Of a stretch of 64,000 bases of DNA, positions 12,636-64,000 are shown piece by piece. The notes under the pieces are model-generated. The model made no database searches. It had not been told where the DNA came from and saw nothing but the letters and a program-made list of their open reading frames with translations. The first letter of the stretch is position 1, and every line of letters begins with the position of its first letter. The DNA lies in assembly GCA_051876075.1 (NCBI GenBank), contig JBJEHM010000023.1, positions 6,114-70,113 of the forward strand, in the 5' to 3' direction. The position numbers and the translations under genes were made by a program. The stretch is from Coriobacteriales bacterium. GTDB lineage: Bacteria; Actinomycetota; Coriobacteriia; Coriobacteriales; QAMH01.

Positions 12636-13187
12636 ATGCAGCTTGCACCCGTAACGGCGGGCGTTCCCGTCATCACCGTCACCGGCTGGTCCAACTCCGG
12701 CAAGACCACCTTCTTCACCAAGGTGGTCGAGCTCCTCACGGCCGCCGGTTACAGCGTGGGTGTCATCAAGCACCACGGCCACAAGGCAGAGACCGTCGAC
12801 CAGAAGGGCAAGGACTCCTGGAAGTACGCGCAAGCCGGCGCCAACCCCGTGGTGCTCTCCAGCGCGATGCAATACGCGATCTTTCGCTCCACGCCCCAGG
12901 GCGAGGTGACCAGGGACGAGCTCATCGCGCAGATCGGGGGAGAGGTCGACTTCGTCATCGTGGAGGGCTTCCGCGCAGATGCAGAAGGCGCCGTCGAGCT
13001 GAGCCGCGTCGCCAATGGCAAGGGCCTCAAGCTCGCCCCAGAGGAGCGCATCGCCCTCATCACCGACAACCCGGAATTCGCCGCGCAGGTGCGCGCAGAG
13101 GGCAAGCCGGTCTTTGGGCTCGACGACCACGCAGAGGTTGCCCGCTACTTCTGCCAGCTGGCTGGCATACAGGACCCCAGGCTCTAG
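12636..13187 (+). CDS. mobB: Molybdopterin-guanine dinucleotide biosynthesis protein B
   Basis: GWSNSGKTT P-loop, VIKHHGH, DQKGKDS, D.VIVEGF. Confidence 0.92.
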   Translation: MQLAPVTAGVPVITVTGWSNSGKTTFFTKVVELLTAAGYSVGVIKHHGHKAETVDQKGKDSWKYAQAGANPVVLSSAMQYAIFRSTPQGEVTRDELIAQIGGEVDFVIVEGFRADAEGAVELSRVANGKGLKLAPEERIALITDNPEFAAQVRAEGKPVFGLDDHAEVARYFCQLAGIQDPRL

Positions 13188-13238: not shown

Positions 13239-14237
13239 GTGAAGGACCATCTTGGCAGAGAGATCGACTATCTGCGCATCTCTGTTACAGACCGCTGCAA
13301 CCTGCGCTGCATCTACTGCATGCCCGCAGAGGGCGTTGCGTGGAAGTCGCACAACGAGATGCTGCGCATCGAGGAGATCGCCCGCGTCGCCCGCATCGCG
13401 GCGGAGGAGGGCATCAGGAAGGTGCGCCTCACCGGAGGCGAGCCCCTGGTGAAGAGGGGCCTTGTGAGCCTCATCACAGACATCAAGGCCGCCGGCATAG
13501 AAGACGTGAGCCTCACCACCAACGGCATTCTGCTGCCGCGCATGGCGCGAGAGCTCAAGGATGCCGGGCTCGACCGCGTGAACATCAGCCTCGACACCCT
13601 CGATGCTGACAAGTACCACGAGATAACCAGGCTCGGCAAGATCGAGGACGTCTTCGCAGCTATAGACGCCGCGCTCGAGTACGGCTTCCATCCCGTCAAG
13701 ATCAACGCCGTGGCAGTGAGAAGCGAGCACCAGAACTTCCTCGAGTTTGCCAAGATGTCTCTCGAGCGCCCCCTGCACGTGCGCTTCATCGAGTACATGC
13801 CGGTGGGCGAGAGCAGCGGCGGCACCGGAGCCGGCTGGGACATCCACGACACCATCCCCAGCGAGGAGTTGCGCCAGATCATCAACGAGGCAGCTGCCGA
13901 GGAGGGCCTTCCCGCGCTCGAGCCCGTCTCCAAGGACGACGCCCCCGGCGGCGGTGGTCCTGCCAAGTACTGGAAGTTCCCCGGTGCTCAGGGCACGGTG
14001 GGATTCATCAGCGCGATGAGCAACCACTTCTGCGCCGAGTGCAACCGCCTGCGCCTCACGGCAGACGGCAAGATTCGCCCCTGCCTCTTCAGCGACGAGG
14101 AGATCGACGTCAAGGCGGCGCTCCAGGGCAGCGACGACGAGGTCCGCAACGCGCTCTACGCAGCGCTCAGGGTCAAGCCAGACGCCCATCATCACAGGGA
14201 GGGCACAGACCGCCGCATGAGCCAGATCGGCGGTTAG
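13239..14237 (+). CDS. moaA: GTP 3',8-cyclase
   Basis: YLRISVTDRCNLRCIYCMP radical SAM motif, FCAECNRLRLTADG.IRPCL, C-terminal MSQIGG. Confidence 0.97.
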   Translation: MKDHLGREIDYLRISVTDRCNLRCIYCMPAEGVAWKSHNEMLRIEEIARVARIAAEEGIRKVRLTGGEPLVKRGLVSLITDIKAAGIEDVSLTTNGILLPRMARELKDAGLDRVNISLDTLDADKYHEITRLGKIEDVFAAIDAALEYGFHPVKINAVAVRSEHQNFLEFAKMSLERPLHVRFIEYMPVGESSGGTGAGWDIHDTIPSEELRQIINEAAAEEGLPALEPVSKDDAPGGGGPAKYWKFPGAQGTVGFISAMSNHFCAECNRLRLTADGKIRPCLFSDEEIDVKAALQGSDDEVRNALYAALRVKPDAHHHREGTDRRMSQIGG

Positions 14238-14291
14238 ACGCCCAGGCGCGCTATAGTTGTGAACATCCGTACTGAGAAAGGCAGGTACGAC

Positions 14292-14846
14292 ATGAGCGAT
14301 ACCATCCCCGGCGGGCTCTCCGCCGGAACAGCAGAGATCACCGGCGCAGACTCCGGCACCCTCACCCATGTAGACGAGCACGGTGCCGTGCGCATGGTCG
14401 ATGTCTCGGCCAAGGCGGACACCCAGCGCATCGCCACGGCGGAGGGCTTCATCTTCATGCACCAAGACACCCTCGACATGATCGTCGAGGGCAAGGCGGC
14501 AAAGGGCGACGTGCTCGCCTGCGCGCGTGTGGCCGGCATCATGGGCTGCAAGCAGACCAGCAGCCTCATCCCCATGTGCCACCCGCTCAATCTCACCAAA
14601 TCCAAGTGCGACCTCGAGCCCATCCTGGCAGGCGAGCGCGAGGACGGACGCGTGGGCATCCACGCCGTCATGACCACCGGCGTCACCGGCAAGACCGGCA
14701 TCGAGATGGAGGCGCTCACCGGTGTCTCGATCGCCCTGCTCACGGTGTACGACATGTGCAAGGCAGTCGACCGCGGCATGGAGATATGCGACGTCCGCCT
14801 GCTCCGCAAGGAGGGCGGCAAGACCGGTTTGTGGACCAGGGACTAG
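14292..14846 (+). CDS. moaC: Cyclic pyranopterin monophosphate synthase
   Basis: LTHVDEHGAVRMVDVS, LIPMCHPL, TGIEMEAL, YDMCKAVD. Confidence 0.96.
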   Translation: MSDTIPGGLSAGTAEITGADSGTLTHVDEHGAVRMVDVSAKADTQRIATAEGFIFMHQDTLDMIVEGKAAKGDVLACARVAGIMGCKQTSSLIPMCHPLNLTKSKCDLEPILAGEREDGRVGIHAVMTTGVTGKTGIEMEALTGVSIALLTVYDMCKAVDRGMEICDVRLLRKEGGKTGLWTRD

Positions 14847-52094: not shown

Positions 52095-52160
52095 ACTGCC
52101 CACAGCGGGCTCCGTGCTAGAATCAATCAGTTATGCCCACCTGCAAACAAAGGGTTGCGC

Positions 52161-55100
52161 GTGTATCTCAAATCGCTTGTTCTCAAAGGATTCAAGTCGT
52201 TCGCAGACCGCTCTGTGCTCAGGCTCGAGCCCGGCATGACCGTCGTCGTGGGGCCCAACGGCTCTGGCAAGTCGAATGTCAGCGACGCGGTCTTGTGGGT
52301 GCTCGGCGAGCAGAGCGCCAAGCAGCTGCGCGGCCAGGCCATGGAAGACGTCATCTTCGCCGGCAGCAGCGCGCGCCAGGCTGTGAGCTTGGCCGAGGTC
52401 GACCTCGTGCTCGACAACAGCGATGGAACGCTGCCCCTCGACTTCAACGAGGTCGTCATAACGCGCCGCATGTACCGCAGCGGAGACAGCGAGTACCTCA
52501 TCAACGGCAGCCCCAGCCGCCTCATGGACATACTCGACGTGCTCAACGACTCCGGCTTGGGCCGCGACGCGCACTCCATCATCTCGCAGGGCGCGCTGCA
52601 GTCACTCCTGCAGTCCCGCCCAGAGGACCGCAGGGTGCTCATCGAAGAGGCCGCGGGCATCCTCAAGCACAAGAAGCGCAAGGAGCGCGCCGCAAAGAAG
52701 CTCCGCAACATGGACGCCGAGCTCGAGCGCGTCAACGATATCGCGGCAGAGATCGACCGCCAGCTCAGGCCGCTCGAGCGTCAGGCGAGCCGCGCCAGGC
52801 AGTACGAGCAGCTCGCCGGCGAGCTCAAGGAGGTCAACCTGACGCTGGCCGTTGACGACCTGCGCTCGCTCCAGCGCGAGTGGGAGGCCCTCGAGCTGCG
52901 CGAGAAGGAGGCGGATGCCGGCGTAGAGCTCGTGCGCTACCGTCTTGACGAGCGCAACCGCGAGCTGGAGAAGCTGCAGCGCCTGCTCGAGGAGAAGGGC
53001 CTCTTCGTGGGCGACCTCGCCGAGCAGCGCCGCCGCTGCCAGATGGTGCTCGCCCAGCTCGACAGCAGCATGCTCCTGCTCGAGGAGAAGGGCCGCAACA
53101 TGGTGACCCGCCTCTCGGAGCTGCGTCAGACCATTCACCAGAGCGAGAGGGGCCTGACTGAGTCCCGCGAGCGCCTGGAGAGGGCGAGCGTGGAGCAGGT
53201 CGAGGCAGAGGCCTCGCTCAAGACCGTCCAGGGCCAGGTGTCGGAGGCGAGCATCTCCCTCGAGGAGACCCGCAAGCAGCGCAAGAGCCAGGACATAGAG
53301 CTCGGGCACCTCAATGGGGCTCTTCGCTCGCATGAGCGCCAGATCGACGAGCTCACCCTCCAGGTGCTCAAGGCAACCGAGAGCCTGGCTACGGCCGATG
53401 TCGAAGACGACCTGCTCAAGCGCCGCGTCCAGCAGATCGACGACAGCTTCGGTGCAACCCAGGCCACGCTCGCTGCGCGCCGCTCCCGCATCGGCGAGCT
53501 CGAGGAGCGCCTCGAAGGCCTTCAGCACGAGTCCGCCCTTGCCAAGAGCGACATCGACAAGCGCGTGCGCCTCGTCGACGACGCCCGCCGCGTGGTGGGG
53601 GACAAGCGCGATGCTGTCGCGGAGCTCCAGGCAGAGCTGAAGGGCCTCAAGGAGGTCGACCGCGCCTTCGACGATGCGAGTCCCCTGCTCAGCCGGGCGC
53701 TTGCCCAGCGCGCAGAGGGGGACGGCATCGTCGCGCCCCTGAGCGAACTGCTGCGCGCGCCGGCAGAGCTCGAGCATCTGGTCGAGCTCCTGCTGGGAGA
53801 AGACCTCTTTGGCTTGGCAACGCAAGACACTGCCAGCGCGCTCAAGCTTGCAGAGCGTCTGCTCGCGGGCGACGAGGAAGGCGGCGAGCTGACCCTCGTA
53901 CCCCTTGAGGGCTGCGCCAACGTCCAGGATGTGTGCGCAAGCGGCACGCGCCTGCTCGAGCTGCTCGACGTCGAGCCGCGCCATGCTGCGATGGCAGAGG
54001 TCCTACTGGGAGACGTCTACCTGGCAGACAGCCTCGAGTCCGCGCTCAGCGCCGTGCACAGCGGATCGGGCGCGCGCTTTGTCACCCGCGAGGGTGTGGT
54101 GGTGTGGCCCAGCGGCAAGATCTGCATCGGCCAGCCCTCTGCAGACACAGAGGGCGTCCTGGCCCGCAAGCGCCGCATCGCCGCCTTGGGGCAAGAGATC
54201 CCCGCCGCCCAGGCCGCCGTCGAGGCTGCCTTGGAGGAGCTCTCCCTCGCCGAGTCCAGGCTCCAGCTCGCCCAGGCCGACGACTTCGAGCTCTCGCAGT
54301 CGATTGCCCAGCTCAACGGTGAGAGGGACTCTTTGCGCGAGGAGGTGGGCCGCCTGGAAGCGAGCATCACCGGCCTCATGCAGGAGCGCGAGGAGATTAG
54401 CCTGCGCCGCGAGAAGGTAGCGCGAGAAACCGAGGAGACGCGCCAGCGCGTGGCCGAGCTCCAGGAGCGCAAGGAGCAGCTTGCCGAGGAGCGCGTCCAG
54501 CTCGAAGAGCAGGCTGCTGCGTCCAAGGAGCAGCGCACCGGGCTCTTCCAGGAAGAGACGGCCGCCACCACCCGCATCCAACAGCTCCAAGTCGAGCTCG
54601 CCACTATCCGCGAGCGCGAGCGCCACCTGCGCTCCACCTGCGAGTCCAGCACCCGCACTATCCAGCAGCTCGAAGAGCAGCTCGAGGTCTCGCACCAGAC
54701 CGAGCACAACCTGGAGATTCTGCGCCTGAGGGTCGAGCCCCTCTACCAGCTCTTCACCGAGCTGCGCGACGTCGTGCGCGAAAAGGCCGAGATGTTGAGG
54801 GACCGCGCCCAGCTCGAGCAGGCCGGGCAGGGAGACCTGCGCAACACCATCGAGGAGGCGCGCCGCGCCGCCCAAGAGCAGCAGGCGCAACTCGACGAGG
54901 CGAGCGAGGGCCTGGTCCAGGTGCGCATAGAGAAGTCGAAGCTCGAGGTGCGCGTCGAGCAGGCCATCAAGGTCATCACGCAGGAAAACGGCGTCTTGCT
55001 CGACATCGCCTTAGAGATGCCGGCACCGGAGGACCGCGCAGAGCTCGAGCAGCGCCGCGACAGGCTCTCCAAGCGCATCAAGGGCCTGGGCAGCGTCAAC

Positions 55101-55745
55101 CCCGTCGCAGTCGAGGAGTACCGCAAGCTCAAGGAGAGGCGGGACTTCATCGCCATCCAGGTCGAGGACCTCGAAGGCGCGGCAAAGGCGCTCGACCGCA
55201 TCGTCGCTGCCATAGACCGCAAGATGCGCAACCGCTTCATGGAGACCTTCAACCAGGTCAATGCCAACTTCCAAGAGATCATCCAGTCGCTGTTCCCCGG
55301 CGGGCAGGGCCACCTCGAGCTCACAGACCCAGAGAACCCGGAGACCACCGGCGTCGAGGTCCATGCCCAACCGCGCGGCAAGGCGGTGCGCAAGCAGAGC
55401 CTGCTTTCCGGCGGCGAGCAGAGCTTGGTGAGCCTGGCCCTCATGTTCGCGGTGTACAGGGTCAACAACACGCCCTTCTACATCCTCGACGAGGTCGAGG
55501 CCGCCCTCGACGACACCAACCTCCGCAGGCTGCTCTCGTACCTGGACTCCATCCGCGAGTCCACCCAGGTGATCATGATCAGCCACCAGCGCCGCACCAT
55601 GGAGATGGCCGACCTTCTCTACGGTGTGTCCATGCGCAGCGACGGAGTCTCTAAGCTCGTCAGCCAAAAGCTCGACCAGGCCATTCGCAGCGCGAGCGGC
55701 CCCAATGCGGCGCGCGACGTCGAGTCGTTCAGCGGCGCCCAGTAG
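52161..55745 (+). CDS. smc: Chromosome segregation protein SMC
   Basis: GFKSFA, GPNGSGKSN, long coiled coils with central hinge, LSGGEQ, ILDEVEAALD. Confidence 0.97.
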   Translation: MYLKSLVLKGFKSFADRSVLRLEPGMTVVVGPNGSGKSNVSDAVLWVLGEQSAKQLRGQAMEDVIFAGSSARQAVSLAEVDLVLDNSDGTLPLDFNEVVITRRMYRSGDSEYLINGSPSRLMDILDVLNDSGLGRDAHSIISQGALQSLLQSRPEDRRVLIEEAAGILKHKKRKERAAKKLRNMDAELERVNDIAAEIDRQLRPLERQASRARQYEQLAGELKEVNLTLAVDDLRSLQREWEALELREKEADAGVELVRYRLDERNRELEKLQRLLEEKGLFVGDLAEQRRRCQMVLAQLDSSMLLLEEKGRNMVTRLSELRQTIHQSERGLTESRERLERASVEQVEAEASLKTVQGQVSEASISLEETRKQRKSQDIELGHLNGALRSHERQIDELTLQVLKATESLATADVEDDLLKRRVQQIDDSFGATQATLAARRSRIGELEERLEGLQHESALAKSDIDKRVRLVDDARRVVGDKRDAVAELQAELKGLKEVDRAFDDASPLLSRALAQRAEGDGIVAPLSELLRAPAELEHLVELLLGEDLFGLATQDTASALKLAERLLAGDEEGGELTLVPLEGCANVQDVCASGTRLLELLDVEPRHAAMAEVLLGDVYLADSLESALSAVHSGSGARFVTREGVVVWPSGKICIGQPSADTEGVLARKRRIAALGQEIPAAQAAVEAALEELSLAESRLQLAQADDFELSQSIAQLNGERDSLREEVGRLEASITGLMQEREEISLRREKVARETEETRQRVAELQERKEQLAEERVQLEEQAAASKEQRTGLFQEETAATTRIQQLQVELATIRERERHLRSTCESSTRTIQQLEEQLEVSHQTEHNLEILRLRVEPLYQLFTELRDVVREKAEMLRDRAQLEQAGQGDLRNTIEEARRAAQEQQAQLDEASEGLVQVRIEKSKLEVRVEQAIKVITQENGVLLDIALEMPAPEDRAELEQRRDRLSKRIKGLGSVNPVAVEEYRKLKERRDFIAIQVEDLEGAAKALDRIVAAIDRKMRNRFMETFNQVNANFQEIIQSLFPGGQGHLELTDPENPETTGVEVHAQPRGKAVRKQSLLSGGEQSLVSLALMFAVYRVNNTPFYILDEVEAALDDTNLRRLLSYLDSIRESTQVIMISHQRRTMEMADLLYGVSMRSDGVSKLVSQKLDQAIRSASGPNAARDVESFSGAQ

Positions 55746-55773
55746 TGTCAACCAGCCAGGGGAGGAGGTTCCC

Positions 55774-56679
55774 ATGTCCCTGAAAGAACGCCTTGCGAGG
55801 GCCCGCCAGAGCCTGACCGAGAGCATGAACGTCCTGTTCAAACGCGGACCCGAGGTAGACGAGGACTTCTGGGAGGATCTTGAGGAGACCCTCATCCTGG
55901 CAGACCTTGGCGCCCAGGCCGCAGAGGAGATCGTCGAGCGCTTGAGGGATACCGCAACGCGCAAGGCCCTCCCAGACGCCTACGCCGTCCTCGATCTGCT
56001 GGCCCAGACCATCGAGGGCCTCTTCACCCAGGCAGACCCGGACCCCTTCGACGAAAACCCCGTGTGCGTGCTCTTTGTGGGGATCAACGGGGCGGGCAAG
56101 ACCACCACGGTGGGCAAGCTCGCAAACCAGGCGCTCGCCCAGGGCCGCAAGCCCCTCATCGGCAGCGCAGACACCTTCCGCGCTGCGGCGATCGAGCAGC
56201 TCGACGCCTGGGGAGAGCGCAGCGGCGTAGAGGTCGTCAAGCGCGAGCGCGGGGCAGACCCCGGCTCGGTGTGCTATGACGTGCTCGAGCGCGCGGAGGA
56301 GCTGGGCAGCGACCTCGTGCTCATCGACACCTCGGGGCGCCTCCACACCAGCGCCGACCTCATGCGCGAGCTCGAGAAGGTCGTGGCTGTCACGCGCAAG
56401 CGCGCCTCCATTCCCGTGCGCGTGGTGCTCGTCATCGATGCCACCACCGGTCAGAACGGCTTGCAGCAGGCGCGCGAGTTCAACAAGGCCCTGGGCCTGG
56501 ACGGCGTGGTCATGACCAAGCTCGACGGCACGGCCAAGGGAGGCATCGCCGTGGCTGTCTCGCACGAGCTGCAGCTGCCCATCCTGCGCATGGGGGTGGG
56601 CGAGTCCATCGAGGACCTTCAGCCCTTCGACCCCCACGCCTTTGCCGAGGCGCTCTTTGGCGAGATGCGCCAGGCCTAG
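55774..56679 (+). CDS. ftsY: SRP receptor FtsY (short, no acidic domain)
   Basis: GINGAGKTTT, DTFRAAA, DTSGR, TKLDGTAKGG. Confidence 0.96.
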   Translation: MSLKERLARARQSLTESMNVLFKRGPEVDEDFWEDLEETLILADLGAQAAEEIVERLRDTATRKALPDAYAVLDLLAQTIEGLFTQADPDPFDENPVCVLFVGINGAGKTTTVGKLANQALAQGRKPLIGSADTFRAAAIEQLDAWGERSGVEVVKRERGADPGSVCYDVLERAEELGSDLVLIDTSGRLHTSADLMRELEKVVAVTRKRASIPVRVVLVIDATTGQNGLQQAREFNKALGLDGVVMTKLDGTAKGGIAVAVSHELQLPILRMGVGESIEDLQPFDPHAFAEALFGEMRQA

Positions 56680-56712: not shown

Positions 56713-58140
56713 ATGTTCGAGAACCTTTCTGCAAAGCTCCAGGGCGTCTTCGGCGGCCTCAAGAGCAAGGGCCGTCTCACCGAGGCAGACATCGATGCCG
56801 CCATGAAGGAGATCCGCATGGCGTTGCTCGAGGCAGACGTCAACTTCAAGGTGGTCAAGGGATTCGTTAAGCGCACCAAGGAGCGCTGCCTCACGGCCGA
56901 TGTCATGGACAGCCTGACCCCCGCCCAAAACGTCGTCAAGATCGTCAACGACGAGCTCACGGCCCTGCTGGGTGGAGAAACCGTCCGTCTCGACTTTGGC
57001 AGCCGCATCCCGGGCGTCATCATGATGGTCGGCCTGCAGGGCTCCGGCAAGACCACCGCCAGCGCCAAGCTGGCATACCGCCTCACCAAGATGGGGCACA
57101 CCCCGCTGCTCGCCGCCTGCGACGTCTACCGCCCCGCTGCCGCAGACCAGCTGCAGACCCTCGGCGACGAGCAGGGCGTGCGCGTCTTCCGCGGGGACGG
57201 CGCCGACCCGGTCGGCATCGCCAAGGGCGCGGTCCGCGATGCCATCGACAACCTGAGAGACGTGGTCATCATCGACACCGCTGGCCGCCTCCACGTTGAC
57301 GAGGCCATGATGGACGAGGCCGTCGCCATCCGCGACGCGGTGAAGCCCGACTACATCTTCTTCGTGGTCGACGCCATGACCGGCCAGGACGCTGTCACCA
57401 CGGCAGCCGCCTTTGCGGAAAAAGTCGACTTCGACGGCGTGATCATGTCCAAGATGGACGGCGATGCCCGCGGCGGCGGTGCCCTCTCCATTCGCGAGGT
57501 CACCGGCAAGCCCATCGCCTTCATCAGCGCGGGAGAGAAGCCCGACTCCCTCGAGGTCTTCCATCCCAGCCGCATGGCCGGCCGCATCTTGGGTATGGGC
57601 GACGTGCTCTCTGTTATCGAGAAAGCCGTCGAGGTCCAAGAGCAGCAGATCGCCGCGGAGGAGGCTGAGCGCCTCGCCAAGGCGGAGTTCACCTTCGAGG
57701 ACTTCTACACGGTCATCGGCCAGACCCGCAAGATGGGCGGTCTCAACAAGCTTGTCGAGGCCCTGCCCGGCGGTGCCAAGGCCCAGGCAGAGGGCAGGGT
57801 TGACGAAGGCGAGCTCGACCGCGTCGAGGCCATCATCAACTCCATGACGCCAGAGGAGCGCCGCAAGCCCCAGGTGCTCAACGGCAGCAGGCGCGCGCGC
57901 ATCGCCCGCGGCTGCGGCCTGAGCGTCACGGAGGTCAACCAGGTCATCAAGAAGTTCAACGAGACCCGCAAGATGGTGAAGAAGCTCACCGCCAAGGCAA
58001 AGCAGGCCGAGCAGGCGTCCAAGGGCAAGAAGGGCAAGAAGCGCAAGGGGCTCTTCGGCCGCAGTGCCGGCATCCCCGGGCTCGAGGGCGTCGACATGAA
58101 GGCCATCGCCAAGATGATGAAGGACGGCGGCCTGGACTAG
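56713..58140 (+). CDS. ffh: Signal recognition particle protein
   Basis: MFENLS.KL, GLQGSGKTT, DTAGR, DGDARGG, M domain NGSRRARIARG. Confidence 0.97.
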   Translation: MFENLSAKLQGVFGGLKSKGRLTEADIDAAMKEIRMALLEADVNFKVVKGFVKRTKERCLTADVMDSLTPAQNVVKIVNDELTALLGGETVRLDFGSRIPGVIMMVGLQGSGKTTASAKLAYRLTKMGHTPLLAACDVYRPAAADQLQTLGDEQGVRVFRGDGADPVGIAKGAVRDAIDNLRDVVIIDTAGRLHVDEAMMDEAVAIRDAVKPDYIFFVVDAMTGQDAVTTAAAFAEKVDFDGVIMSKMDGDARGGGALSIREVTGKPIAFISAGEKPDSLEVFHPSRMAGRILGMGDVLSVIEKAVEVQEQQIAAEEAERLAKAEFTFEDFYTVIGQTRKMGGLNKLVEALPGGAKAQAEGRVDEGELDRVEAIINSMTPEERRKPQVLNGSRRARIARGCGLSVTEVNQVIKKFNETRKMVKKLTAKAKQAEQASKGKKGKKRKGLFGRSAGIPGLEGVDMKAIAKMMKDGGLD

Positions 58141-58748
58141 GCCTGCCGGCTCAAGCGCAGCTCCAATCCGGCGAGGTAATCCTCGAGCATCTCCTCTATG
58201 CAATCGAGCACATGGGTGGGCTCTGCCACGATGTCGCCGTTGAGCCAGCTCATGAGGGCGGACTCCAGCATGTGCGCGATGTAGCGGCAGCGCTCCCGGG
58301 CGCTGTCCTCTTCCATGCCGGCGGCCGACAGCTTGGGAAGGAACTCCTGCTCGAGCTCGCGGTTAACGAGTTCGAGCAGCTCCTCCCGCAGGCCCTTGTC
58401 CCCGAGCGCCGGCACGATCATCTCCTTGAGGGCCGGGTTCTCGGCCAGCCAGTTCAGGGTCTCACTCGCGCTCTCCTTCCATCCCTGCCGCCCCGTTTCC
58501 CGTGCGCCCGCCTGTCCAAAGGCCCGCTCCAGCTCGCGCTCATATGCGTATTGGGCCAGCTGGGGGATGCTCTTGAAGTAGTAGTAGAAGGTCTGGCGGT
58601 CGATGCCGCATGCGTCTGTGATCTGCTTGACGCGCAGCGTGTCCAGTGCCTCGCCTTGAGAAAGCAAGCCAACCAGGGCGTCTGCAAGGGATTCCCTGGT
58701 GCTGGGACCTCGCTGCCCGCCTCGCACGGTGTTCCTCCCAGTTCCCAT
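58137..58748 (-). CDS. TetR/AcrR family transcriptional regulator
   Basis: HTH: LADAL..LL, LRVKQITDACGIDRQTFYYYFKSI. Confidence 0.88.
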   Translation of the reverse strand: MGTGRNTVRGGQRGPSTRESLADALVGLLSQGEALDTLRVKQITDACGIDRQTFYYYFKSIPQLAQYAYERELERAFGQAGARETGRQGWKESASETLNWLAENPALKEMIVPALGDKGLREELLELVNRELEQEFLPKLSAAGMEEDSARERCRYIAHMLESALMSWLNGDIVAEPTHVLDCIEEMLEDYLAGLELRLSRQA

Positions 58749-58983
58749 AGGCTCTTCCTCCTGCCTGCGCCCCGCGCTCACGCTGCAGGGCTTCCTTTGC
58801 TTCTCTGGGCACTGATTATGACAGCTGTATGGTCCCCCTTCCAGCGTGTGGCAGCAGGCACGCCACGCTCATAAGTCACCGTTTCGTCACCCTAGCGCCG
58901 TGCCCTTTGGGTTATAAGGAACTGACGTCTATACGCATCGGCGGGCAGTGCCTGCCGTTTCTTTGGCTATTGGAGGAAACATC

Positions 58984-59808
58984 ATGGCTGGATGCAGCGG
59001 AAGCTGCGGCTCTTGCGGGGACTCTTCCTGCGGAGAGCGCACAGAACCTCAGGCCCTCAAGCAGCACGAGGGCACCAAGATCAACAAGATCATTGCCGTC
59101 GCCAGCGGCAAGGGCGGCGTGGGCAAGTCCCTCACCACCGCCCTGCTCGCCTGCGAGCTGCAGCGCCGCGGCAAGAAGGTCGGCATCCTCGACGGAGACA
59201 TCACGGGCCCGTCCATTCCCCGCTCTTTCGGTGTGCACAGCGCCCCGCAGGTCGACGAGGACGGCATGCTGCTGCCCGCAGTGACCAAGACCGGCATCAA
59301 GATCGTCTCCACCAACATGCTCACTGCAGACGAGGCAACGCCCTTCCTGTGGCGCGGTCCCGTCCTCAACGGCGTGCTGACCCAGTTCTACAGCGACATC
59401 AACTGGGGCGAGCTCGACTACCTGCTCATCGACATGCCCCCGGGCACGGGCGACATCCCCATGACCGTCTTCCAGCAGTTCCCCATCGCGGGCGCCATCG
59501 TGGTCTCGTCCCCGCAGGTCCTGGTGAACATGATCGTCGAGAAGTGCATCCGCATGTGCGCGAGCATGAAGGTCCCCGTCCTGGGCCTCGTCGAGAACAT
59601 GTCCTACTACCAGTGCCCCACCTGCAACGAGAAGCACGAGATCTTCGGCAAGTCTGAAGTCGAGTACATCGCCAAGGAAAAGCACATCGACGCCTGGGCG
59701 CGCATCCCCATGGAGCCCCAGGTCACCGCTCAGGTCGACGCCGGCAAGGTCGAGGACATAGAGAACAGCTGGTACGCCGGCATCGCAGACAAGCTCGAGG
59801 CGCTGTAG
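58984..59808 (+). CDS. mrp: Mrp/NBP35 (ApbC) Fe-S cluster carrier ATPase
   Basis: N-terminal CSGSCGSC, SGKGGVGKS, WRGP, DMPPGTGD, VENMS...CPTC. Confidence 0.94.
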   Translation: MAGCSGSCGSCGDSSCGERTEPQALKQHEGTKINKIIAVASGKGGVGKSLTTALLACELQRRGKKVGILDGDITGPSIPRSFGVHSAPQVDEDGMLLPAVTKTGIKIVSTNMLTADEATPFLWRGPVLNGVLTQFYSDINWGELDYLLIDMPPGTGDIPMTVFQQFPIAGAIVVSSPQVLVNMIVEKCIRMCASMKVPVLGLVENMSYYQCPTCNEKHEIFGKSEVEYIAKEKHIDAWARIPMEPQVTAQVDAGKVEDIENSWYAGIADKLEAL

Positions 59809-59816
59809 GGGCGCAC

Positions 59817-60818
59817 ATGGCAGACACCAAGAGGAAGCTTCCCCCCGCCCCCCAGTACGAGCTCGAGAGCTACGAGCCCGTGCAGATCACCCGCCCGGTC
59901 TACGTGGTGACAGACGAGGTCTTGGAAGCGCGCATCAAGCAGATCATGGACGGCGCCTCAAAGGACTACGTCCCCACCAAGCGCCAGGTTGCCGGCCCCA
60001 AGGACAACATAGAGATCTCCATTCACGTCGACAAAGACGGCGAAGAGGTCAAGGGCCTGTGCAGCGAAAAACAGGTCTACTCGCTGGGCCAGGGCTACAT
60101 GCCCATCGGCTTCGACCGCAACGTCGTGGGCATGAAGGTGGGTGAGTCCAAGTCCTTCGACTTCGACGCTCCGGACTTCGACGACCCAGACGCCAAGGAG
60201 AGGCCCTTCCATGCGGAGGTCACCTTGCGCTGCGTCCTCAAGGAGGCGGAGCCCGAGCTCACAGACGAGTGGGTCTCCAAGCACATCATGCTCTGCAAGG
60301 ACGTCGAGACCTTCCGCGCCCGCACGCGCAAGCAGCTCGAGCAAGAGGCCGTGAAGGCGGCGGACGGCGAGCTCATGGACCGCGCGGTCCGCGCTCTGGC
60401 CACCCGCTTCAAGGGCAGCATCGACGACGTGTGGTACGAGTCCACGCGTGACGACCTCCTGCGCACCTACGAGGAGCAGGCCCGCACCCAGGGCACCGAC
60501 CTCGACGGCTTGCTCGCCGCCCAGGGCATGGACAAGCAGCAGTTCAACATGATGCTGATGCTCCAGGTCAGGGAGATGCTGGTCCAGGGTTTTGTGCTCG
60601 ACGCCTGGGCGCGCCACTACGGCATCGAGCAGACAGAGGAAGACGTCTTGTACGTTGCCAACCTCATGTCCAACAACCGCGGCAAGCTCATGATCGACAA
60701 CCTGAGGGAAGCAGGGGAGGAAGAGCAGCTCAAGGGCCTCGAGATGGCGGCCCGTCGCTACGCTGCCAACAAGCACCTCCTCGAATGCGCGGAGGTCACA
60801 GAGGAGCAGCCCCTCTAG
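59817..60818 (+). CDS. Trigger factor-like chaperone (FKBP + C-terminal domains, lacks ribosome-binding N-domain)
   Basis: VTDE.....I, LGQGYMPIGFD..VVGMKVGE FKBP-like segment, PELTDE, helical C-domain; no GFRxG motif. Confidence 0.75.
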   Translation: MADTKRKLPPAPQYELESYEPVQITRPVYVVTDEVLEARIKQIMDGASKDYVPTKRQVAGPKDNIEISIHVDKDGEEVKGLCSEKQVYSLGQGYMPIGFDRNVVGMKVGESKSFDFDAPDFDDPDAKERPFHAEVTLRCVLKEAEPELTDEWVSKHIMLCKDVETFRARTRKQLEQEAVKAADGELMDRAVRALATRFKGSIDDVWYESTRDDLLRTYEEQARTQGTDLDGLLAAQGMDKQQFNMMLMLQVREMLVQGFVLDAWARHYGIEQTEEDVLYVANLMSNNRGKLMIDNLREAGEEEQLKGLEMAARRYAANKHLLECAEVTEEQPL

Positions 60819-60881: not shown

Positions 60882-61187
60882 TCGTCTATTCAGCGGCTAA
60901 CGTTGCGGTTCATACCGCTCTGTCACGGTGCGAATGCCGACTAATTATTATCCTTCAAAAAACATAAACCATTTGCCACTTCATCGGTTCTTCGCGGTGG
61001 GTTTTCTGTTGAGGGCGGTATCGATTTGGTCCATTATGGGTTGGAATATCGTGGCCGCGGTATCTCTGTGCCCTCTTTCTATTTGGGAAGGGAGAGAGCA
61101 GGGGAGAGGAGCGGGCGATACTTGCAGTGGGCACCGCTTGCCGGTGTTTGCAAGATGCTGAGAGAGAAGAAGGAAAAGGAGGAGCAA

Positions 61188-64000
61188 GTGACAGACAGGA
61201 AACTCGAAGTCCTTCAGATGGAGGGTGTCGAGGTCAGGAAAACCTGTTGCTACTTCTGCCACCACAACTGCGGCGTTCTCGCCTATGTTAAGGATGGCGA
61301 GCTGCTGTACACCGAGGGCGATCCCAACACGTCCAACGCCGGTGGTCTGTGCGCACGTGGCAACCAGGCAATGACTTTCTACGATGCCCCGACTCGCATC
61401 AACTACCCGCTCAAGCGCGCGGGCAAGAAGGGCGAGAACAAGTGGGAGCGCGTCTCTTGGGACCAGGCTCTGACAGAGATCGCAGACAAGATCAACACCA
61501 TCAAGGCAGAGAGCGGCGCAGAGGCCGTGGCTGCCATCGCCGGTACCCTGCGTACCGACGACTGGGCACGCCGCCGCTTCATGAACCTCTTCGGCACCCC
61601 CAACGTGTGCCACAACTCCCTGCTCTGCTGGGTCCCCACCTTCATGGTCGAGACCGCAGTGGCCGGCTGGTCTCCCTTCGAGACCGACCTGGGCGGCTCT
61701 AAGTGCGTCATCCTGTGGGGCTTCAACCCCGGTGCCGCCAACCTCCCCGCAGCCCACGGCTATTTCGATCTGCAGAGGCAGACCGGCATGAAGATCATCG
61801 TCGTCGACCCCCGCTACACGGAGACCGCTGCTCACGCAGACCTGTGGCTCCCCCTGCGCCCGGGTTCCGACACCGCTCTGGCGCTGGCTATGATCAACGT
61901 CATCTGCAACGAGTACATCTATGACATGGACTTCGTTGACGAGTGGTGCATCGGCTTTGACGAGCTGGTCGAGCACATCGACCAGTACGATCCCGAGTGG
62001 GCCGCCGAGAAGACCTGGCTCGACCCCGAGCTGATCCGCCAGGCTGCCCGCATGTACGCCACCAACACCCCCGGTAACATCCAGTGGGGCTGCACCTGGG
62101 ACCAGCTGGGCAAGTCCTCCGGCGCCGGCTCCCATGCCCGCCAGATCCTGCGCGCCATCACCGGCAACCTCGATGTTCCCGGTGGCGACGGCATGCCCGG
62201 CCCTGCCGCCTACATCACCGACTACGAGCTCGAGTTCAACGAGGAGCTCCCGGAGGAGGTCAAGGCCAAGCAGATCGGCGCTGACAAGTTCCCGCTGACC
62301 ACCTTCCCCGGCTACGACCGCCTGGCTGGCATCTCCAAGGAGAAGTGGGGCAAGGCATTCACCGCCGAGTGGATGTGCGAGGCCCACGGCCCGTCCATCT
62401 TCAAGGCCATCCTCACCGGCGTGCCCTACAAGATCCGCGCCCTCTTCGTCTCTGGCTCCAACCCGTTGAGCTCCTACGGCGACTCCAAGATGGTGTACGA
62501 GGCAACCAAGCAGGTCGAGTTCCTGGTCGTGCTCGAGTACGTCATGACCCCCACCGCCCTGCAGGCAGACTACGTGCTGCCCGTTGCCGGTGCTATCGAG
62601 CGCCCCGTCATCCACACCAACTACGGTGTCACGGACTCCATCGTCTGCCACCAGCGCGGCGTCGAGCCTGCTTACGAGCGCAAGACCGACTACAACATCT
62701 GGCGTGACCTGGGTCTGGCCTGCGGTCAGGACGAGCAGAAGTTCTGGCCCAACGAGCGCCTCGAGGACGAGTTCTTCGACGTTCTCAAGCCGCTCAACCT
62801 CCCCATCACCAGCTACGACGACTTCGTCGAGCGCTTCCGCATGTACTACCCGCCCCTGCAGCAGGCCAAGCACCTCAAGCGCGGCTACTTCTGCACGGCT
62901 TCTGGCAAGGTCGAGCTCAAGTCCTCTGTCCTCGAGGAGCTGGGTCTCCCCGGCCTGCCCGTCTACCTCGAGCCCTCCGAGAACGAGACCGAGCATCCCG
63001 AGGTTGCAGATGAGTTCCCCCTGGTGCTCACCACTGGCGGCGGCTTCATGCCCTACTGCCATTCCGAGCACTTCAACAACCCGATCTTCCGCTTTGTCAT
63101 CCCCGATCCCCACTTCACCATCCACCCGGATACCGCCAAGAAGCTGGGCATCAAGGCCAACGACTGGTGCTGGATCGAGACCCGCCGCGGCCGCATCAAG
63201 CAGCGTGCTAACGTCGAGCCCAGCCTCGACCCCCGCGTGATCTACACCCAGCGCGGTTGGTGGTTCCCCGAGCGCTCCCATGAGGGTTTCCAGCCCTTTG
63301 GCTGCATGGAGTCCAACACCAACATGCTGACCTCCGTTGACGACGAGGACTGCTGCCCCATGACCGGCTGCTGGGCAAACCGCGGTCTGCTCTGCAAGGT
63401 CTACAAGTGCACCGAGACCGACCATGAGTTCACCTATGAGGACTCCCTGTTCTCCATCCCCGGCAATCGCCGCGAGCCTGGCATCGACTGGGATTACGTG
63501 AAGAACCCGCCCCGCGCGCTTCCCTTCAACGAGCCCATCTTCGCCCAGCCCGACTTTGAGGTCCCCGCTGGCCTCGAGTGGGACTACAAGACCCGCAAGG
63601 CTTGGAACGCAGAGAAGACCCAGTACTTCGACGCTGCCTCTGGCTGGATGATCGGCAAGGACAACGGCGCCTACTACCAGTACGGCACCGGCTACCGCTA
63701 CCTGGCACTCGACGGTGTGAACTACCTCGTCGACGAGGCCAACGATGTCTTCTATGACTTCAGCGGTGCCCAGGTTGCCGCCCCTGCAGCACCTGTCGAG
63801 GTTCCCGAGGGTCTCAAGTACGACTTCTTCCGCCAGAAGGTCGTCGAGCCCAGCACCGGCTACTACCTGGATGCAAGCGGCTGGCTGATCGACGAGGCCA
63901 CCGGCTCCTACTTCGAGCGCTACACCCTGCGCAAGTACGATGCCACCCTCAACGTTTTGGTCGACCAGCAGACCGGCAAGTTCTACAGCATGCAGGACCC
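61188..64000 (+). CDS. Bis-MGD molybdopterin oxidoreductase catalytic subunit (DMSO reductase superfamily, acetylene hydratase/catechol dehydroxylase-like), 3'-truncated by window edge
   Basis: Translated by hand from GTG after AAGGAGGAG; frame stays open to the window end (>937 aa). Motifs: C21xxC24xxxC28..C55 Fe-S, RINYPLKR, WERVSWDQAL, VVDPRYTETA..ADLWLPLRPGSD, TALQADYVLP, molydop-binding domain IHPDTAKKLGI..NDW..IET.RG. No Tat signal. Confidence 0.93.
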   Translation, partial: MTDRKLEVLQMEGVEVRKTCCYFCHHNCGVLAYVKDGELLYTEGDPNTSNAGGLCARGNQAMTFYDAPTRINYPLKRAGKKGENKWERVSWDQALTEIADKINTIKAESGAEAVAAIAGTLRTDDWARRRFMNLFGTPNVCHNSLLCWVPTFMVETAVAGWSPFETDLGGSKCVILWGFNPGAANLPAAHGYFDLQRQTGMKIIVVDPRYTETAAHADLWLPLRPGSDTALALAMINVICNEYIYDMDFVDEWCIGFDELVEHIDQYDPEWAAEKTWLDPELIRQAARMYATNTPGNIQWGCTWDQLGKSSGAGSHARQILRAITGNLDVPGGDGMPGPAAYITDYELEFNEELPEEVKAKQIGADKFPLTTFPGYDRLAGISKEKWGKAFTAEWMCEAHGPSIFKAILTGVPYKIRALFVSGSNPLSSYGDSKMVYEATKQVEFLVVLEYVMTPTALQADYVLPVAGAIERPVIHTNYGVTDSIVCHQRGVEPAYERKTDYNIWRDLGLACGQDEQKFWPNERLEDEFFDVLKPLNLPITSYDDFVERFRMYYPPLQQAKHLKRGYFCTASGKVELKSSVLEELGLPGLPVYLEPSENETEHPEVADEFPLVLTTGGGFMPYCHSEHFNNPIFRFVIPDPHFTIHPDTAKKLGIKANDWCWIETRRGRIKQRANVEPSLDPRVIYTQRGWWFPERSHEGFQPFGCMESNTNMLTSVDDEDCCPMTGCWANRGLLCKVYKCTETDHEFTYEDSLFSIPGNRREPGIDWDYVKNPPRALPFNEPIFAQPDFEVPAGLEWDYKTRKAWNAEKTQYFDAASGWMIGKDNGAYYQYGTGYRYLALDGVNYLVDEANDVFYDFSGAQVAAPAAPVEVPEGLKYDFFRQKVVEPSTGYYLDASGWLIDEATGSYFERYTLRKYDATLNVLVDQQTGKFYSMQD
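63558..64000 (+). repeat. Protein-level tandem repeat, 240-nt (80-aa) period, in the molybdoenzyme C-terminal tail
   Basis: Unit 1 EVPAGLEWDY...ASGWMIGKDNGAYY...YLVDEANDVFY. Unit 2 from 63798 EVPEGLKYDF...ASGWLIDEATGSYF...VLVDQQTGKFY. Confidence 0.85.

Follow-up and report, generated by a model that had tools for sequence, protein, structure and literature searches.

What does a relative of acetylene hydratase (AH) do inside a Coriobacteriales cell when histidine stands in the place of the catalytic aspartate? The question is raised by a gene at the 3' end of the stretch of DNA analyzed here, a 64,000-nucleotide segment (the window) of contig JBJEHM010000023.1 from a Coriobacteriales bacterium (assembly GCA_051876075.1, positions 6,114 to 70,113 of the forward strand). 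The gene encodes a predicted molybdenum (Mo) or tungsten (W) bis-pyranopterin oxidoreductase and is referred to below as the Mo gene. A first-pass annotation, made from the letters of the window, had described its product as a cytoplasmic molybdoenzyme and had suggested a different substrate or chemistry, possibly an undescribed reductive dehydroxylation of a dietary or host compound. Instead, we think it probable that the product is the alpha subunit of a three-subunit, cytoplasm-facing complex iron-sulfur Mo/W-enzyme that works as a menaquinol-driven reductase of an intracellular organic substrate. Judging from its sequence, we read the enzyme as neither an acetylene hydratase nor a member of either characterized clade of catechol dehydroxylases.

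The protein has the fold of AH. Three Pfam domains scored above their cutoffs, namely, Molybdop_Fe4S4 (amino acids 16 to 64), Molybdopterin (70 to 508), and Molydop_binding (622 to 719), and phmmer aligned residues 19 to 741 with residues 4 to 727 of the AH chain 2e7z (E = 1.9e-119). An AlphaFold model of the protein (predicted local distance difference test [pLDDT] score, 87.5; predicted template modeling [pTM] score, 0.84) had 2e7z as its best Foldseek match (E = 4.9e-61; TM score of 0.90 on the target; root mean square deviation of 2.9 Å), with the runner-up at 2e-43. AH is defined by a dimethyl sulfoxide (DMSO) reductase family fold, a [4Fe-4S] cluster bound by Cys9, Cys12, Cys16, and Cys46, and Cys141 as the metal ligand (PMC12096430). 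In the 2e7z alignment, H25 lies opposite Asp13, C147 lies opposite the tungsten ligand Cys141, and R57 stands where AH has Lys48. The motifs reported by the first-pass annotation, C21-Y-F-C24-H25-H-N-C28...C55-A-R57 and GTPNVCHNSLLC147W, were reproduced by translation, with another Cys (C20) just before C21. C21, C24, C28, C55, R57, and H25 are invariant in 121 of 121 family sequences (down to 56% identity), as are H142, N143, C147, and W148 and many residues of the pyranopterin domain; H26 varies. The column of C147 is Cys in 130 of 136 relatives, which bears out its earlier designation as the ligand position, and we infer that C147 serves as the protein ligand of Mo or W. For Ile14, Ile113, and Ile142, which together with Trp293 we take to make up an active-site set of AH, the alignment gives H26, L121, and W148, and Trp293 is kept as W300. 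Two named active-site residues of AH, Trp179 and Trp472 (PMC12096430), are aligned with L186 and Y479.

To examine the histidine across the lineage, the family was compared with 136 representatives, obtained by searching 1.84 billion cluster representatives exhaustively, and with characterized enzymes whose sequences came from the source alignment of the eLife 2020 study. At the site that follows the second cluster cysteine, His is more frequent than any other residue (34 of 136), and Asp occurs in 3 of 136, belonging to the AH clade and one other representative (P0221). The same His is found in the Gordonibacter dehydroxylases ("PGCHEGC" in Cldh and "PGCHNGC" in Dodh) and in 42 of 46 of the nearest stand-alone relatives, and the Eggerthella dehydroxylases read CxxC-G-KxEC, with Gly at this site. 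On these alignments, His at the Asp13 position of AH is an old and common state of the lineage and no mark of unusual chemistry, contrary to what its presence had been taken to imply. In AH, Asp13 next to Cys12 is specific to the AH subfamily and essential, and the D13A variant is inactive (PMC12096430); H25 instead of Asp13 therefore excludes a true acetylene hydratase.

The window protein and its homologs form a single 50%-identity cluster (1108 bits), referred to here as the family. The next relatives reach at most 644 bits and at most 44% identity, are about 720 to 750 amino acids long, and lack the C-terminal tail described below. In a neighbor-joining tree (678 trimmed columns, 100 bootstraps), the family was monophyletic in 100 of 100 bootstraps, and 89 of 100 contained a clade of the family and AH, its sister clade, with all characterized catechol dehydroxylases outside. 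The family joined the Gordonibacter type (Cldh and Dodh, AH excluded) in 2 of 100 bootstraps and the Eggerthella type in 1 of 100. Since identity on conserved columns is nearly equal for AH (37.6%), Dodh (38.5%), and Cldh (37.5%), this placement is moderate rather than decisive. The 2e7z match, the tree, and the Foldseek result agree with the first-pass assignment to the AH/catechol dehydroxylase branch of the DMSO reductase superfamily; the protein did not cluster with an unrelated subfamily, and its identity to any characterized enzyme was at most ~38%. Among the named NCBIfam enzymes of the superfamily (PhsA, FdhF, DmsA, NasC, TorA, ArrA, and others), no model reached its cutoff, the best being PhsA with 290 bits against a cutoff of 694. 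Formate dehydrogenases carry a Cys/Sec-His signature. Identity as a formate dehydrogenase, a nitrate reductase, or Psr/Phs was rejected on the NCBIfam scores and on the Trp, not His, that follows the ligand Cys. More than 2,400 database proteins match the family at E ≤ 1e-30, and a relative is encoded in 310 species-representative genomes, nearly all from Coriobacteriia and mostly from Eggerthellaceae, which places the family among the most conserved molybdenum enzymes of the Eggerthellaceae.

The first-pass annotation had bounded the gene at 61188 and 63410. The start was confirmed; there is no stop at 63410, and the frame runs off the window. By comparison with a full-length homolog (P0001, 98% identical) and a 99%-identical locus (L001), the full gene is expected to comprise about 1,032 codons from the GTG; in both of these, about 95 more residues follow beyond the point where the window ends, giving a tail of 291 amino acids after "KVYKC". 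The GTG at 61188 is the sole candidate start with a Shine-Dalgarno match, and an in-frame stop lies upstream at 60942 to 60944. No twin-arginine motif was present in the 81 in-frame codons between this stop and the GTG, and 0 of 120 family members carry one; the absence of a twin-arginine translocation (Tat) leader, as first reported, therefore extends to the possible N-terminal extensions and to the family. The public gene call of P0001 begins 61 codons too early (P0001 residues 1 to 61). The window segment that matches these residues (60928 to 61161) lies in another frame than the gene and is thus noncoding, which rules it out as a signal sequence. Neither a molybdenum cofactor riboswitch or other RNA element nor a sigma-70 promoter was found in the 369-bp upstream region.

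The partner subunits that had been expected beyond the window were identified in relatives, as a 4Fe-4S protein and a membrane anchor. In L001, the Mo gene is followed directly by genes for a 186-amino-acid Fer4_11 protein and for a 398-amino-acid protein that matches Pfam NrfD (8e-22). The ferredoxin starts MTRYAMIMDTRRCIGC, has no leader, and is a full-length homolog of PsrB (2vpw_B, E = 3e-49), implying four [4Fe-4S] clusters. The order alpha-ferredoxin-NrfD is kept in relatives at 56 to 66% identity, in 29 of 31 loci, and in all 49 species-level loci (49 of 49) whose downstream sequence is long enough to show it, among them those of the cultured Gordonibacter sp. 28C, Raoultibacter timonensis, R. 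massiliensis, Adlercreutzia faecimuris, and Enterorhabdus sp. P55. The nearest tail-less relatives belong to Bathyarchaeia, Chloroflexota, Desulfobacterales, Dehalococcoidia, and Moorellaceae; none of their 48 loci had an NrfD gene within 4 kb, and only two weak ferredoxin matches were seen, so that the membrane module is specific to the family. In its alpha-beta-gamma gene order, PsrB-type beta subunit, and NrfD gamma subunit, the system resembles PsrABC of Thermus thermophilus (2VPW), and it shares with the NrfD-anchored Psr/Phs/Dms complexes an alpha subunit of the molybdenum bis-pyranopterin guanine dinucleotide type, a four-cluster beta subunit, and an NrfD/PsrC-type gamma subunit (beta and gamma from relatives). 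It differs in that PsrA is exported by Tat, whereas the alpha subunit here is leaderless, about 26% identical to PsrA, and predicted to sit on a module of reversed topology.

This reversal is suggested by the distribution of charges in the anchor. In an alignment of 12 anchors, eight hydrophobic (transmembrane) segments were recognized, and Lys plus Arg averaged 10.2 on the loops of the N-terminal side versus 1.2 on the opposite side; the C-terminal extension of the anchor is basic and falls on the N-terminal side. From this positive-inside bias, the anchor is predicted to be N-in/C-in, with both termini cytoplasmic, the opposite of PsrC. As the soluble subunits carry no leaders, the alpha-beta module on such an anchor should sit at the cytoplasmic side of the membrane. 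Since the relatives have a membrane anchor, the first-pass description of the enzyme as cytoplasmic holds only in the sense of a predicted cytoplasm-facing position. When the anchor was compared with PsrC, phmmer gave only chance matches to glutamate receptors, and a 12-sequence profile matched nothing; with no alignment to PsrC to draw on, the topology is read from the charge bias alone. Both termini of the canonical PsrC lie on the P-side, and SoeC has been proposed to be inverted, making SoeABC a proposed cytoplasm-facing complex of the NrfD type (PMC8076601). No other cytoplasm-facing precedent of this type was found in the literature consulted. The anchor of the clade to which the window belongs is ~70 residues longer at its C terminus than that of a more distant relative (398 versus 326 amino acids; L001 13660 to 14856 versus L024 11508 to 12488), and this extension is basic, with a proline-rich stretch, PEPKPAYPRY.

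The C-terminal repeat tail, like the true end of the gene, was overlooked in the first-pass annotation. The window holds about 195 residues past the AH-like end, and comparison with relatives gives the protein three modules, two inside the window and a third beyond it, with the pattern Y-x-Y-D-x-x-S-G-W-L-I-D...Y-Y-D...Y-D...L-V-D-x-x-T-G-K-x-Y-x-M. Across the family, tails contain one to four copies of the module, usually two, and are 125 to 800 amino acids long (median, 208). Longer tails of up to ~800 amino acids, with extra or widely spaced modules, occur in P0019 (1,340 amino acids), P0076 (1,537), P0081 (1,255), and P0002 (1,189). The Pfam OCRE model (PF17780) gave a marginal pass for the tail in the window (24.8 bits versus a cutoff of 24.7) and a clear pass for that of L024 (55.4 bits), a 56%-identical relative. 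Short beta-hairpins are predicted in the tail by the full-length model and by the tail-only model alike, with pLDDT around 90. The linker is confident in the full-length model only, suggesting that it is packed against the catalytic body. A fold search with the tail gave no significant match to any solved structure at the whole-domain level; teneurin/Rhs YD-repeats and Cpl-1 choline-binding repeats were rejected as identities for the tail (E of 0.02 or worse, TM score of about 0.1). The modules thus share with the OCRE domain of the eukaryotic RBM5 and RBM10 their match to the model and their aromatic-rich beta-hairpins but differ in being fused, in one to four copies, to a bacterial redox enzyme. 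In eukaryotes, OCRE domains bind motifs rich in proline. We infer that the tail is a docking or assembly module, and by analogy it is conceivable that it contacts the proline-rich extension of the anchor.

Taken as a menaquinol-driven reductase, the complex would work as follows. The alpha subunit, with the AH fold, would hold one [4Fe-4S] cluster through C21, C24, C28, and C55 and a Mo or W bis-pyranopterin with Cys147, and the PsrB-like ferredoxin with its four [4Fe-4S] clusters and the eight-helix, quinone-interacting NrfD-type anchor would complete the complex, with the alpha-beta module docked at the inner face of the membrane. Electrons would be exchanged with menaquinone along a path from the quinol site through the four clusters of the ferredoxin and the N-terminal cluster of the alpha subunit (FS0) to the metal, five clusters in all. 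His25, beside the oxygen ligand bound to the metal, might act as a proton relay in place of Asp13 of AH, presumably likewise in the Gordonibacter dehydroxylases that have the same His, and the reaction would be the removal of an oxygen atom or hydroxyl from an organic substrate inside the cell. A further proposal, which we put forward tentatively and consider somewhat less likely than not, is that the family represents a new respiratory-type class, in which an AH-lineage enzyme was recruited in Eggerthellaceae onto an inverted NrfD/PsrB module, docks through its OCRE repeats, and carries out a probably constitutive redox reaction on an intracellular metabolite in hundreds of gut species.

Several points weigh against the reductase reading. 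No feature of the data points to a substrate or shows which way the electrons flow, and the sequence does not tell Mo from W. The partner genes lie outside the window and are taken from the 99%-identical contig and other relatives, the topology depends on the positive-inside rule without a residue-level control, and the tree is a neighbor-joining tree on 678 columns in a lineage where identities to AH, Dodh, and Cldh are nearly the same. Finally, the Mo gene adjoins housekeeping genes (SMC/FtsY/Ffh here and pheST elsewhere), without the sensor-regulators typical of the inducible Eggerthella reductases; in such a setting, a constitutive and possibly donor-side enzyme fits as well as a reductase does.

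The alternative closest to the first-pass suggestion is a reductive dehydroxylase of a catechol, phenol, or alcohol of dietary or host origin, which would then represent a third, membrane-anchored and cytoplasm-facing architecture among such enzymes. Like the Gordonibacter-type dehydroxylases (Cldh, Dodh, and Gp Hcdh), the family is leaderless and cytoplasmic, comes from the same host family, and has ~38% identity to Dodh, His after the cysteine equivalent to Cys12 of AH (the Cys-His motif common to Cldh and Dodh), and Cys at the ligand column. The alignment in Figure 7 of the eLife 2020 study includes its Gordonibacter members among the putative dehydroxylases, and 121 of 126 homolog clusters are still without an assignment (PMC11585353). 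However, the Gordonibacter type lacks the first two FS0 cysteines, whereas the full CxxCxxxC...C motif is kept here, and those enzymes are soluble and two-subunit, with a small ferredoxin, an adjacent major facilitator superfamily transporter, and no OCRE tail, whereas the family has three subunits with a membrane anchor (in relatives). The Eggerthella type (Dadh, Cadh, and Hcdh) is closer in composition, with an FS0-containing catalytic subunit, a 4Fe-4S subunit, and a membrane anchor, but those enzymes are exported by Tat leaders (SRRTFVK/SRRSFMR), have Gly and a four-residue spacing in CxxC-G-KxEC, contain large insertions (~950 to 1,200 amino acids), and are 31 to 35% identical to the window protein. 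Further, the family joined either clade in just 2 and 1 of the 100 bootstraps, has no linked transporter or sensor-regulator, and is conserved in 310 species beside housekeeping genes rather than on a strain-variable inducible island. The first-pass suggestion of reductive dehydroxylation is therefore no more than a guess, and we consider a dehydroxylase of this class rather unlikely.

A serious rival, if in our view a rather improbable one, is a donor-side dehydrogenase that oxidizes a cytoplasmic metabolite and passes its electrons to menaquinone, following the logic of SoeABC. The predicted architecture, with leaderless alpha and beta subunits and an inverted anchor, is like that of SoeABC as described in the literature (the likeness is to the description, not to the sequence), and the location in the core genome and the wide conservation suggest a housekeeping role. 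On the other hand, the catalytic subunit of SoeABC is of a different lineage, none of the NCBIfam models reached its cutoff, the 25 best listed included no Soe model, the characterized members of the lineage are a hydratase and reductases, and the neighboring genes suggest no donor substrate. To our knowledge, SoeA has no OCRE tail.

Much less probable is a nonredox hydratase or lyase acting on another small unsaturated substrate, with the partners keeping the metal reduced or anchoring the enzyme. AH from Pelobacter/Syntrophotalea acetylenicus is by far the closest solved structure, the closest characterized sequence, and the sister clade; it shares the FS0 CxxCxxxC...C motif, the Cys ligand position, and the lack of a Tat leader, and the nearest relatives of the family stand alone as AH does. 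Nevertheless, AH is a stand-alone, nonredox enzyme without an OCRE-like tail and with ~34 to 38% identity to the family, its essential Asp13 is His here, Leu and Tyr are aligned with Trp179 and Trp472, and the strict pairing with genes for a ferredoxin of four clusters and an anchor of the quinone type (49 of 49 loci) argues for electron transfer through the complex. It is highly improbable that the protein has lost catalysis and serves as a structural subunit without a cofactor, for which QrcB of the NrfD-linked Qrc complex sets a precedent (PMC13059093): none of the cluster cysteines varies among the 121 sequences, nor does the ligand cysteine, many residues of the pyranopterin domain are likewise invariant, and all three Pfam cofactor domains pass their cutoffs.

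Members of the family have been recorded before without being recognized. The eLife 2020 Figure 7 alignment holds two of them, "3C-NODE_10 5" (G. pamelaeae 3C) and "28C-NODE_1 12", both as tBLASTn fragments from "CH-ANCGV" to "KVYKC", thus without the tail, and both left uncharacterized. A later survey of respiratory reductases aimed at genes for predicted secreted enzymes with signal peptides, and a leaderless family would have fallen outside such a screen. A literature search found no published account of the tail, the leaderless NrfD arrangement, or a substrate. The family is of interest because it alone joins an enzyme of the AH lineage to an NrfD module that is apparently inverted and to a tail of OCRE repeats, and because this set of traits occurs in hundreds of gut species. 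Eggerthellaceae molybdenum enzymes alter the fate of drugs, neurotransmitters, steroids, and dietary polyphenols, and most of these enzymes are unassigned. If the tentative proposal of a new respiratory-type class holds, SoeABC would no longer be the only known NrfD complex to face the cytoplasm; the complex would be the second, and the first of the AH lineage. If the predicted inward-facing, quinone-linked arrangement is right, it would widen the repertoire of NrfD-type complexes. It would also be a natural case of a soluble AH-like enzyme wired into the respiratory chain and would point to a core redox reaction in Eggerthellaceae for which nobody has looked.

Table 1. Coordinates of the Mo gene, its elements, and neighboring genes in the window.
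Feature	Position	Strand	Remarks
SMC	52155-55745		Housekeeping block; named by eye from sequence
FtsY	55624-56679		Housekeeping block; named by eye from sequence
Ffh	56713-58140		Housekeeping block; named by eye from sequence
Weak TetR-like regulator	58137-58781	-	Divergent from Mrp gene; TetR_N 22.9 bits, below Pfam cutoff
Mrp/NUBPL-type Fe-S-transfer P-loop ATPase	58948-59808	+	PF10609, 289 bits
Trigger-factor-like protein	59817-60818	+	333 amino acids; Trigger_C 42 bits, weak FKBP
Ribosome-binding site and start codon	61176-61190	+	Ribosome-binding site AAGGAGGAG at 61176-61184, GTG start at 61188-61190; Shine-Dalgarno match
Mo gene (alpha subunit)	61188-64000	+	Predicted Mo/W-bis-pyranopterin oxidoreductase; frame open to window end, 937 codons present
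N-terminal [4Fe-4S] (FS0) motif	61248-61352	+	C21 at 61248, C24 at 61257, C28 at 61269, C55 at 61350, then R57
His25 codon	61260-61262	+	Position of AH Asp13; second-sphere, beside cluster ligand Cys24
Cys147 codon	61626-61628	+	Position of AH Cys141; predicted Mo/W ligand; within H142-N143-x-L-L-C147-W148
C-terminal extension	63411-64000	+	Absent from AH; ~70-amino-acid linker after KVYKC, then ~45-amino-acid OCRE-like modules
OCRE-like module 1	~63621-63767	+	
OCRE-like module 2	From ~63858 to window end	+	

Upstream of the Mo gene, two neighbors may be connected with the assembly of its product. Of 27 related loci, 16, including L009 to L018 and L032, have the Mrp gene directly 5' of the Mo gene, and the Mrp product may be a dedicated factor for cluster insertion or maturation. 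The trigger-factor-like protein, whose ribosome-binding N-domain is almost missing, could be a private chaperone for the leaderless enzyme; its gene is found between the Mrp and Mo genes only in the closest clade (L001 to L006). The TetR-like gene is present in L001 and in L003 to L006. L001 shares the SMC-FtsY-Ffh block with the window, and its TetR-like gene is only 76% identical, indicating that L001 stems from a closely related but different strain. An antisense open reading frame of 814 amino acids (60981 to 63425, minus strand) spans the whole AH-like part of the gene and was rejected as an artifact of the ~65% G+C content, as were further long open reading frames that overlap real genes between 55000 and 64000.

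Downstream, the relatives at 56 to 66% identity carry the three-gene operon followed by a CCG-domain (HdrD/GlpC-like) protein. The recurring set also includes a second molybdopterin oxidoreductase of ~750 amino acids without an Fe4S4 domain, a DUF2064 protein, and a radical-SAM protein with a Zn_ribbon_HMPTM domain; it is located at 12856 to 18822 in L024, at about 12821 to 18565 in L028 to L031, and at 14414 to 20175 in L032. In L032, a PIN-domain toxin gene and a small upstream partner (13515 to 14241), likely a toxin-antitoxin pair, sit between the three-gene operon and the CCG/molybdopterin cluster. Six of the related contigs (L003, L006, L013, L019, L022, and L007) are filed in "cleanbin" assemblies of unrelated taxa (Agathobacter rectalis, Akkermansia muciniphila, Ruthenibacterium lactatiformans, Acidaminococcaceae, Bacteroidaceae, and Bacteroidales), which probably reflects contamination of those bins.

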